Assembly: GCF_050920415.1 (NCBI RefSeq)
Contig: NZ_CP169309.1
Length of the DNA: 64,000 nt
From: Escherichia coli
GTDB taxonomy: Bacteria; Pseudomonadota; Gammaproteobacteria; Enterobacterales; Enterobacteriaceae
Reading direction: 5' to 3' (one strand)
Shown here: in pieces, positions 52,594 to 54,269 of the stretch
Numbering within the stretch: the first letter of the stretch is position 1
How the letters are laid out: each line of letters starts with the position of its first letter
Translations under genes and position numbers: made by a program
The notes under the pieces: generated by a model
The model's input: the letters and a program-made list of their open reading frames with translations, nothing else
Database searches by the model: none
What the model was told of the DNA's origin: nothing

Positions 52594-53124
52594 ATGGCTA
52601 TCACTGGCATCTTTTTCGGCAGCGACACCGGTAATACCGAAAATATCGCAAAAATGATTCAAAAACAGCTTGGTAAAGACGTTGCCGATGTCCATGACAT
52701 TGCAAAAAGCAGCAAAGAAGATCTGGAAGCATATGACATTCTGCTGCTGGGCATCCCAACCTGGTATTACGGCGAAGCGCAGTGTGACTGGGATGACTTC
52801 TTCCCGACTCTCGAAGAGATTGATTTCAATGGCAAACTGGTTGCGCTGTTTGGTTGTGGCGACCAGGAAGATTACGCTGAATACTTCTGTGACGCATTGG
52901 GCACCATCCGCGACATCATTGAACCGCGCGGTGCAACCATCGTTGGTCACTGGCCAACTGCGGGCTACCATTTCGAAGCATCAAAAGGTCTGGCAGATGA
53001 CGACCACTTTGTCGGTCTGGCTATCGACGAAGACCGTCAGCCGGAACTGACCGCTGAACGTGTAGAAAAATGGGTTAAACAGATTTCTGAAGAATTGCAT
53101 CTCGACGAAATTCTCAATGCCTGA
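52594..53124 (+). CDS. fldA: Flavodoxin 1
   Basis: 176 aa from [23 protein letters not shown]. Confidence 0.96.
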
Positions 53125-53128
53125 TGTG

Positions 53129-53160
53129 ATGCGGCGTAGACTCATGTCTACGCCGTATTA
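53129..53160. terminator. Rho-independent terminator after fldA
   Basis: gcggcgtagac-tcat-gtctacgccg followed by tatta. Confidence 0.7.
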
Positions 53161-53333
53161 ATAGATAATGCCAATCAAAATAATTGCTACAAATTTGTAA
53201 CTTTTGCTGTTGTACCTGTACAATGTCCCGGTGTTCAAGTGGCCTTGCCGTTGTAAATGTAAGCTGTGCCACGTTTTTATTAACAATATTTGCCAGGGAC
53301 TTGTGGTTTTCATTTAGGCGTGGCAATTCTATA

Positions 53334-53420
53334 ATGATACGCATTATCTCAAGAGCAAATTCTGTCACTTCTCCTAATGAAGTGAACCGCTTAGTAACAG
53401 GACAGATTCCGCATGACTGA
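53334..53420 (+). CDS. uof: fur upstream leader ORF
   Basis: 28 aa MIRIISRANSVTSPNEVNRLVTGQIPHD ending 8 nt into fur. Confidence 0.75.
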   Translation: MIRIISRANSVTSPNEVNRLVTGQIPHD

Positions 53421-53859
53421 TAACAATACCGCCCTAAAGAAAGCTGGCCTGAAAGTAACGCTTCCTCGTTTAAAAATCCTGGAAGTTCTTCAGGAGCCGG
53501 ACAACCATCACGTCAGTGCGGAAGATTTATACAAACGTCTGATCGATATGGGTGAAGAAATTGGTCTGGCTACGGTATATCGCGTACTGAACCAGTTCGA
53601 CGACGCTGGTATCGTCACCCGCCACAATTTTGAAGGCGGTAAATCCGTATTTGAACTGACACAGCAACATCACCACGATCACCTGATCTGCCTCGACTGC
53701 GGCAAGGTTATCGAATTTAGTGATGATTCCATCGAAGCGCGTCAGCGTGAAATTGCCGCAAAACATGGCATTCGCCTGACTAACCACAGTCTCTATCTTT
53801 ACGGTCACTGTGCCGAAGGCGATTGCCGCGAAGATGAGCACGCGCACGAAGGCGAATAA
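53413..53859 (+). CDS. fur: Ferric uptake regulator
   Basis: 148 aa MTDNNTALKKAGLKVTLPRLKILEVL... Confidence 0.97.
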   Translation: MTDNNTALKKAGLKVTLPRLKILEVLQEPDNHHVSAEDLYKRLIDMGEEIGLATVYRVLNQFDDAGIVTRHNFEGGKSVFELTQQHHHDHLICLDCGKVIEFSDDSIEARQREIAAKHGIRLTNHSLYLYGHCAEGDCREDEHAHEGE

Positions 53860-53885
53860 GCCAGTCTGAACGAGAAAAGCCAACC

Positions 53886-53912
53886 TGCGGGTTGGCTTTT
53901 TTATACAAGGGA
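53886..53912. terminator. Rho-independent terminator after fur
   Basis: aaaagccaacctgcgggttggctttttt. Confidence 0.8.
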
Positions 53913-53942
53913 CATAAGAAAAGCGAGAGTTACAGCTCTCAC

Positions 53943-54269
53943 TTATTTGTTATTGCTGCGAATTTCCTGCCAGACCTTATCACAATCGGTTTTCACTGCC
54001 TGGTCATTACCGGTTTGCGTTGCCTGAATGCACTGCTGATAATCCAGCACACGGACACTTTCCTGCTCGGCAAATTGCTGATGTTGTTTCTCTTTCTTCA
54101 GCACGTTTAACACGCTCTGACAGGCTTCAATTTTTTCCGGCGAACCTTGCGCGGTGTTGATACAGGCGCTGTAAGCTTCTTTCAGATGGCTGTCTTCCTG
54201 TGGCGCGGTGGATTGTGCACAAGCCACCAGCCCCGATGCCATCATGGCGATGAGAATCAGTTTTTTCAT
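53943..54269 (-). CDS. chiQ: Lipoprotein co-transcribed with chiP
   Basis: 108 aa with lipobox LVAC. Confidence 0.88.
   Translation of the reverse strand: MKKLILIAMMASGLVACAQSTAPQEDSHLKEAYSACINTAQGSPEKIEACQSVLNVLKKEKQHQQFAEQESVRVLDYQQCIQATQTGNDQAVKTDCDKVWQEIRSNNK

Follow-up and report, generated by a model that had tools for sequence, protein, structure and literature searches.

The region between fldA and fur in the stretch of Escherichia coli DNA analysed here (64,000 nucleotides of contig NZ_CP169309.1, referred to as the window) is very probably the canonical E. coli fldA-uof-fur control region, in which control is layered over transcription, transcript types and translation, and in which the leader contains a conserved hairpin. 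This identification is contradicted by none of the evidence; the mechanistic steps are less well supported. In enterobacteria Fur acts as the master regulator of iron, and the dosage of Fur itself is controlled by a textbook multi-layer circuit that comprises Fur, OxyR, SoxS, CRP, RyhB and MiaB. The original prediction had classed its findings as known biology, and the annotated uof, the published Fur footprint and the literature on coupling bear this out: the leader ORF uof (b4637), the operator at which Fur acts on the fur promoter (Pfur), and control by RyhB and MiaB have all been described before. What is added here is finer anatomy, namely a triple overlap of -10 hexamer, operator and AUG with the two transcript classes that it implies, and some modest comparative notes. 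The seven nucleotides TATAATG are the -10 element of a promoter, a half-site of the Fur operator and the start codon of an upstream ORF (uORF), and this triple use results in two transcript classes with different translational logic.

Positions 53100-53900 are 100% identical to an E. coli chromosome (NZ_CP169399.1), in which the annotated gene order is ybfF, ybfE, fldA, uof and fur on the + strand and chiQ and chiP on the - strand. Of 5,426 complete E. coli genomes, 5,424 contain this segment; in the other two, no match to the uof-fur locus was found. One E. coli genome has a further, plasmid-borne copy of the uof-fur segment. The leader ORF had been predicted to be uof, with 28 codons and its end 8 nt inside fur. 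Both points are correct: the ATG is at 53334-53336, the TGA at 53418-53420 and the fur start at 53413, and RefSeq labels the ORF uof, 'fur leader peptide'. In K-12 MG1655 it is b4637, the 'RyhB-regulated fur leader peptide'.

53334..53420, + strand: uof, S14P allele, the fur leader ORF of 28 codons plus TGA
53413..53859, + strand: fur, 148 aa, K148E relative to K-12
53413..53420, + strand: uof/fur overlap ATGACTGA, with the fur AUG at 53413-15, the uof UGA at 53418-20 and a second-frame TGA at 53414-16

The translation of uof is MIRIISRANSVTSPNEVNRLVTGQIPHD. Between the fldA stop and fur (300 nt), the window and K-12 differ by a single base, T53373C, which results in uof S14P; uof thus matches its K-12 counterpart in 27 of 28 residues and 86 of 87 nt. 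The exact 87-nt allele of the window is a minority allele, found in 393 of 5,424 E. coli genomes. The substitution falls in the loop of the leader hairpin described below and takes away one of five U-starting codons; a functional consequence of S14P is not evident from the sequence. Fur itself differs from the K-12 protein by K148E at its C-terminus (53854-53856). Downstream of fur, a sub-threshold Rfam match to STnc370, a Salmonella sRNA candidate, lies at 53869-53947 on the - strand (28 bits versus a gathering score of 54). It is located in the convergent terminator region between fur and chiQ and probably represents just the terminator hairpins.

The Fur operator and the promoters of the fur leader

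The sequence across the uof start (53328-53350, 23 nucleotides) had been noticed as a palindrome that resembles a Fur box. It contains a perfect 6-bp inverted repeat, ATAATG at 53331-36 and CATTAT at 53342-47, with a gap of 5 nt. The box and the promoter that it overlaps are as follows.

53330..53348, no strand assigned: Fur box TATAATGATACGCATTATC, 16/19 consensus match; DNase I footprint maps to 53322-53351
53307..53335, + strand: Fur-repressed fur promoter Pfur, with -35 TTTTCA at 53307-12, a 17-bp spacer and -10 TATAAT at 53330-35

When the 64 kb of the window were searched with the 19-bp Fur consensus GATAATGATAATCATTATC, 53330-53348 was the sole match with up to 3 mismatches, and 100 dinucleotide shuffles yielded no such match. 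For the position weight matrix (PWM) scan, a palindromic 19-bp matrix was built from 11 other footprinted Fur regions of K-12, with coordinates taken from Table 3 of Chen et al. 2007 (PMC2189734). The fur site itself was excluded to avoid circularity. With this matrix the box scored 18.96 bits, which is within the range of the training sites (11.5-23.0) and ranks first among 63,982 positions; this score was reached in 3 of 100 surrogates of 64 kb generated with a first-order Markov model. A PWM scan had been named as the check on the Fur box, and the significant score at this site confirms the prediction, with which the consensus and the published footprint also agree. The next-best matches in the window (32329, 11994, 10163 and 36565, with 14.7-15.5 bits) may be AT-rich chance matches.

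The footprint comes from the same Table 3 (PMC2189734), which lists a DNase I footprint of Fur in the fur promoter at 709931-709960, taken from de Lorenzo 1988. With an offset of +777 between genome versions, it maps to 53322-53351 to within about 1 nt and brackets the box, and it was published on a K-12 sequence that is identical to the operator of the window. A paper on the Fur pan-regulon says nothing about autoregulation of fur. In the collection of 5,426 E. coli genomes, 5,295 have a match to the 48-bp block around the operator (53305-53352), and 5,274 of these share it with 100% identity.

The box opens with TATAAT, and these six bases are at the same time the -10 of the TTTTCA-17-TATAAT promoter, so that half of the match equals the sigma-70 -10 consensus. 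Moreover, the right arm of the box decays quickly outside the group of Escherichia, Citrobacter and Enterobacter. Both observations would suit the idea that the box is no binding site for Fur but only an AT-rich -10 region with a chance likeness to the consensus. However, a matrix trained without this site ranks it first, the consensus match is unique in the window and absent from the shuffles, and the operator block is invariant across E. coli. The footprint published for exactly this sequence already contradicts a chance resemblance, which we regard as extremely improbable. Due to the unique consensus match, the top PWM rank, the mapped footprint and the invariant block, 53330-53348 is a real Fur operator.

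With 10 of 12 consensus positions, TTTTCA-17-TATAAT is the best sigma-70 match in the region, and in the alignment its -35 and -10 are invariant across 24 genera. The original prediction had left out that the -10 of Pfur doubles as the first six bases of the Fur box. The last two bases of this hexamer are the A and the U of the uof AUG, and the geometry of the promoter places its transcription start site (TSS) at about 53341-53344, inside uof. Since the uof AUG is located within the -10/discriminator, transcripts from Pfur would begin inside uof and lack its start codon, and translational coupling could thus act only on longer transcripts. Sinha et al. 2018 (PMC6191717) and Jaworska et al. (PMC7867234) also report that transcripts from the fur promoter start inside uof, and that a further promoter exists upstream of uof. 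Candidates for the upstream elements are found between the end of fldA and Pfur.

53127..53160, + strand: fldA terminator hairpin without U-tract, -27 kcal/mol, z = -5.5
53161..53197, no strand assigned: OxyR-consensus-like site, 14/20 specified positions, joint best in 64 kb
53195..53224, + strand: upstream sigma-70-like promoter, candidate 'Puof', TTGTAA-18-TACAAT, 9/12, from a promoter scan
53255..53276, no strand assigned: CRP-like site AAATGTAAGCTGTGCCACGTTT, 15/22 of the CRP consensus, the window maximum, a value common to 4 sites

The predicted start of the upstream promoter, about 53231, would yield a transcript that carries the complete uof. The OxyR-like site abuts the -35 of this promoter, and regulation of fur by OxyR has been attributed to Zheng 1999 (as cited in PMC12683245); 53195-53224 may thus be an OxyR-activated promoter on which OxyR acts from 53161-53197. 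A weak Fur-PWM match at 53164 (GATAATGCCAATCAAAATA, 12.06 bits, rank 10) overlaps the OxyR-like site. Control of fur by CAP appears in the title of de Lorenzo 1988, as given in the reference list of PMC2189734, and we tentatively assign it to 53255-53276.

Transcripts could also reach uof by read-through from fldA. In the Term-seq data of Adams et al. 2021 (PMC7815308), an RNA 3' end with an intrinsic-terminator score of 19.7 is located at K-12 710897(-), which corresponds to position 53162 of the window. This is 2 nt past the fldA hairpin, which is a working terminator in vivo. In the same data, coverage is higher past the terminator than before it (494 versus 220), which indicates downstream promoters and fits with partial read-through. 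According to Conway et al. 2014 (PMC4161252), three promoters feed ybfE-fldA-uof-fur, and northern blots detect long uof-fur transcripts (PMC6191717).

Taken together, Fe-Fur bound to 53330-53348 would block RNA polymerase in classical autorepression. The binding site itself is established, and occlusion of the polymerase by bound Fur is suggested by the geometry of the overlap. Pfur would give rise to a short mRNA that begins at about 53341-53344 and lacks the uof start. In this scheme the arrangement of promoter and AUG is observed and the TSS is a prediction. Long mRNAs with the whole uORF would come from the upstream promoter at 53195-53224 and from read-through of the fldA terminator. That two transcript classes exist is taken from the literature, and their exact start sites are our estimates.

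The uof reading frame and its coupling to fur

The original prediction had proposed that translation of uof and fur is coupled. The 8-nt overlap on which this was based is present and the literature reports coupling, but the sequence alone does not prove it. Coupling of fur translation to uof is stated in PMC7534054, PMC12683245 and PMC11448259, all of which trace it to Vecerek et al. 2007. From the same source, PMC7534054 and PMC12683245 report that RyhB blocks initiation at uof, and PMC11448259 reports that a UCA codon in uof requires MiaB-modified tRNA-Ser ('iron-responsive decoding'). We treat coupling, RyhB control and MiaB control as claims of the literature, for which the window provides the sequence prerequisites, i.e. 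the overlap, weak Shine-Dalgarno (SD) sequences and UCA at codon 6.

53349..53351, + strand: UCA, uof codon 6 in the codon listing, reported as a codon of MiaB-modified tRNA-Ser (PMC11448259, citing Vecerek 2007)
53399..53402, + strand: weak fur SD AGGA, 10 nt from the AUG, anti-SD duplex -4.0 kcal/mol
53353..53366, + strand: candidate RyhB pairing core, GAGCAA with RyhB 42-47 (including G44 and C45) and UGUC with RyhB 38-41

The uof SD is weak as well (anti-SD duplex -3.6 kcal/mol), and 16-19% of random positions equal or beat the two SDs (16% for that of fur). The sequence ACAGGA at the fur SD is invariant in 24 aligned genera. When the leaders were examined for structure that masks the ribosome binding site of fur, they folded no better than shuffled sequences (z = -0.03 and -0.37). 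A long-range helix of the minimum free energy fold, UCUGU at 53361-65 with ACAGA at 53402-06, was dropped because it is not conserved in the alignment.

On the long mRNAs, ribosomes would translate uof, stop at the UGA at 53418-20, which is 5 nt past the fur AUG, and then reinitiate at this AUG with the help of a weak SD only. Any reduction in uof translation would lower the amount of Fur, be it through RyhB pairing near codons 7-11 or through poor decoding of the UCA at codon 6 when MiaB, an Fe-S enzyme, is not active.

To place the RyhB site, we used a RyhB query sequence that was confirmed with Rfam (83 bits). Downstream of the internal promoter, GAGCAA at 53353-58 with RyhB 42-47 forms the sole perfect 6-bp helix that includes G44 and C45, both of which are genetically required (PMC6191717). 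The local duplex of the candidate core has an energy of -11.9 kcal/mol, a value not distinguishable from background, so its placement is a suggestion. The best duplex of the RyhB seed region in the leader reaches -13.8 kcal/mol and is matched or beaten by 28% of random 40-nt windows. RNAduplex runs with full-length RyhB gave meaningless duplexes with giant loops. The authors of PETcofold (PMC3018821) similarly described the published RyhB-uof model as not predictable. Sinha et al. 2018 (PMC6191717) report that the level of the short mRNA, in which the uof AUG is missing, is reduced by RyhB, and that of the long mRNA is not. A helix at GAGCAA, downstream of the internal promoter, fits this effect, which is hard to reconcile with a mechanism that works purely through a block of uof initiation. 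The RyhB and coupling steps are not recoverable from sequence and should therefore not be assigned to other genera on the basis of homology alone.

For a comparison across species, we used 80 species loci from one Fur scan of the genome collection. The -10 and the half-box are more widely conserved in this set than the uORF. While CTATAATGA-ACGCAT and the -35 are kept in 71 of the 80 species, including Erwinia and Pantoea, an intact uORF that runs from the ATG embedded in the -10 into fur is found in only about half of them. A uORF of 28 or 29 codons occurs in Escherichia, most Citrobacter, Enterobacter, Kosakonia, Phytobacter, Kluyvera, Pluralibacter, Pseudescherichia, Leclercia and Siccibacter. 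It is absent, due to a frame shift or an intervening stop, from the representatives of Salmonella arizonae, Klebsiella, Raoultella, Atlantibacter, part of Buttiauxella, part of Cedecea and Shimwellia, and from most of the Erwiniaceae and Pectobacteriaceae sampled. The uORF is thus restricted to certain lineages, and the promoter/operator and the covarying leader hairpin are distributed more widely.

The beginning of fur is nearly constant: it reads ATGACTGA, with TGA at fur+5, in 78 of the 80 species (comparison loci L011-L090, positions 1201-1208). Thr2 of Fur is always encoded by ACT, and this synonymous T is kept even where there is no uORF. Because ATGACTGA contains stops in both non-fur frames, a uORF can end there in two frames. 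In seven loci (Mangrovibacter, Cedecea neteri, a Buttiauxella and others), the uORF uses the TGA at +1 as its stop, which results in an ATGA overlap. We grouped the loci into 45 genus-by-spacing classes. The uORF is open in 23 of the 30 classes in which its frame ends on the fur start and in 3 of the 15 in which it shares the frame of fur (Fisher p = 4e-4, without correction for phylogeny).

Variability in uof codons 6-19 is 0.65, 0.33 and 0.69 at codon positions 1, 2 and 3, but as a test for selection on the peptide this measure is uninformative, since the hairpin and the Fur box act as confounders. UCA at codon 6 is poorly conserved, with 12 of 39 distinct intact uORFs of other species retaining it. 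The data suggest that, where a uORF exists, selection acts on its termination at the fur start (ATGACTGA, in either of two frames) rather than on the peptide.

These observations also bear on whether uof is incidental, i.e. whether the ATG of TATAATG is kept only as part of the -10 and the Fur box and uof contributes little to Fur. In favour of this, the start of the main Fur-regulated transcript lies past the uof AUG, which transcripts from the internal promoter would therefore not include; uof has a weak SD, and codon-position variability gives no clear sign of peptide selection. The species without a uORF point in the same direction, given that the promoter sequence is so much more widely kept. 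However, published experiments report that fur translation depends on uof (PMC7534054, PMC12683245 and PMC11448259, as traced above), the uORF is open far more often when its frame ends on the fur start, and in-frame variants of 28 and 29 codons exist. The long uof-fur transcripts on northern blots likewise speak for a functional uof. We therefore consider an incidental uof quite improbable and prefer the reading in which uof takes part in the expression of fur.

In this strain the uof frame is open upstream, over 78 codons (53184-53420), and an in-frame ATG at 53223 overlaps another -10 hexamer (TACAATG). The open length upstream varies between strains, with 37-60 codons in two of the comparison loci (L011 and L012), and the extension is thus probably meaningless.

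The leader hairpin and the RNA 3' end at the fur start codon

Within uof, the leader contains a conserved hairpin, and an abundant RNA 3' end has been mapped to the overlap with fur.

53365..53385, + strand: conserved leader hairpin, UCACUUC/GAAGUGA with a 7-nt loop, uof codons 11-18
53414, + strand: abundant in vivo RNA 3' end in K-12 (710645(-)), at the U of the fur AUG, inside the overlap

The hairpin comprises 7-8 bp and is found in the comparison loci L011-L073 at about 1153-1175. In other genera the arms at this place differ in sequence but still complement each other, as in CUUCC/GGAAG, CUUCCC/GGGAAG, GCUCC/GGAGC, CGCUCA/UGAGCG and GCUUCG/CGGAGC. Support was gathered from folds of the individual sequences, RNAalifold, pair counts with controls and a covariance model. 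Pairs were counted in two alignments, a MAFFT alignment of 30 sequences and a structure-aware alignment of 50 distinct sequences; the latter was fitted to the model, so its counts lean towards structure. In the MAFFT and the structure-aware alignment, respectively, 81% and 83% of the cells are paired (30-49% and 31-46% in slid controls). Seven of the 8 pairs show double-sided changes in either alignment, in 22 cells (controls up to 15) and 39 cells (controls up to 20). The covariation scores are 0.322 (controls up to 0.170) and 0.324 (controls up to 0.144), values reached by 0 of 500 shuffles in each alignment. The covariance model matched 61 of 81 sources exactly once, each time at the homologous position, and had no other match in 288 kb. 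Rfam families gave no match over the leader (53125-53868) at E <=1. Genera without the uORF have the hairpin as well, and it can thus be regarded as an RNA-level feature of the fur leader. The fur SD lies outside the hairpin, and no U-tract comes after it.

The 3' end at 53414 was reported by Adams et al. 2021 (PMC7815308), with 137,086 and 180,817 reads in two conditions. At 137,086 reads it compares with 47,785 for the fldA terminator. The same authors list it with a Rho score of 1.10 ('No') and an intrinsic-terminator score of 1.13 and flag it as 'uORF'. Without BCM, coverage is 306 upstream and 327 downstream. As coverage is not reduced past this end, the site is not an efficient attenuator.

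A hairpin that covaries and persists in genera without the uORF, together with such an abundant 3' end at the fur AUG, raises the question of whether the leader is mainly an RNA element instead of a means of uORF coupling. In this case the hairpin, with or without the 3' end, would control stability, processing or premature 3'-end formation. However, the hairpin has no U-tract after it and the 3' end is 29 nt further downstream, and this end scores poorly as a terminator and does not depend on Rho. The undiminished downstream coverage and the lack of an Rfam family over the leader also argue against an RNA element, and we consider this explanation unlikely. Coupling through uof on the long mRNAs remains our preferred reading.

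A more speculative combination, to which we give little credence, is that a discrete stable leader RNA exists, as a RyhB decoy or a regulated 3'-end product, in addition to selection on a uORF that ends at ATGACTGA. The covarying hairpin and a 3' end that is about three times as common as that of the fldA terminator would fit such an RNA. It would be about 73 nt long if made from the internal promoter or about 184 nt if made from the upstream one, and it would carry the RyhB-pairing sequence.

Comparison with known systems

The closest known system is uof of K-12 (b4637; Vecerek, Moll and Blasi 2007, as represented in later papers), which has the same position between fldA and fur, 28 codons, an 8-nt overlap and UCA at codon 6. 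The leader of the window is identical to it except for the one base at T53373C (S14P). The Fur operator of the fur promoter described by de Lorenzo et al. 1988, as tabulated in PMC2189734, is identical in sequence to that of the window.

A leader of the transcription-attenuation type (trpL/thrL) was considered and rejected, because there is no U-tract hairpin between uof and fur, the fold of the leader has a z of about 0, and the 3' end at 53414 has a terminator score of 1.13. Termination-reinitiation of the overlap type (ATGA and similar arrangements) is among the closest known systems. There, as here, the stop overlaps the start region of the next gene, and in some genera the uORF ends on ATGA itself. 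Another likeness is the action of GcvB on thrL and ivbL (PMC7534054), in which, as in the case of RyhB and uof, an sRNA acts through a uORF on the downstream gene.

The fur promoter of Yersinia enterocolitica (PMC7867234) shares the architecture of the promoter: a Fur box (TATAATGAGACGCAATTGA) and the -10 TATAAT overlap, and fldA is located upstream. Unlike in E. coli, the authors report no uof there, which matches our observation that the -10 and the half-box are conserved more widely than the uORF.
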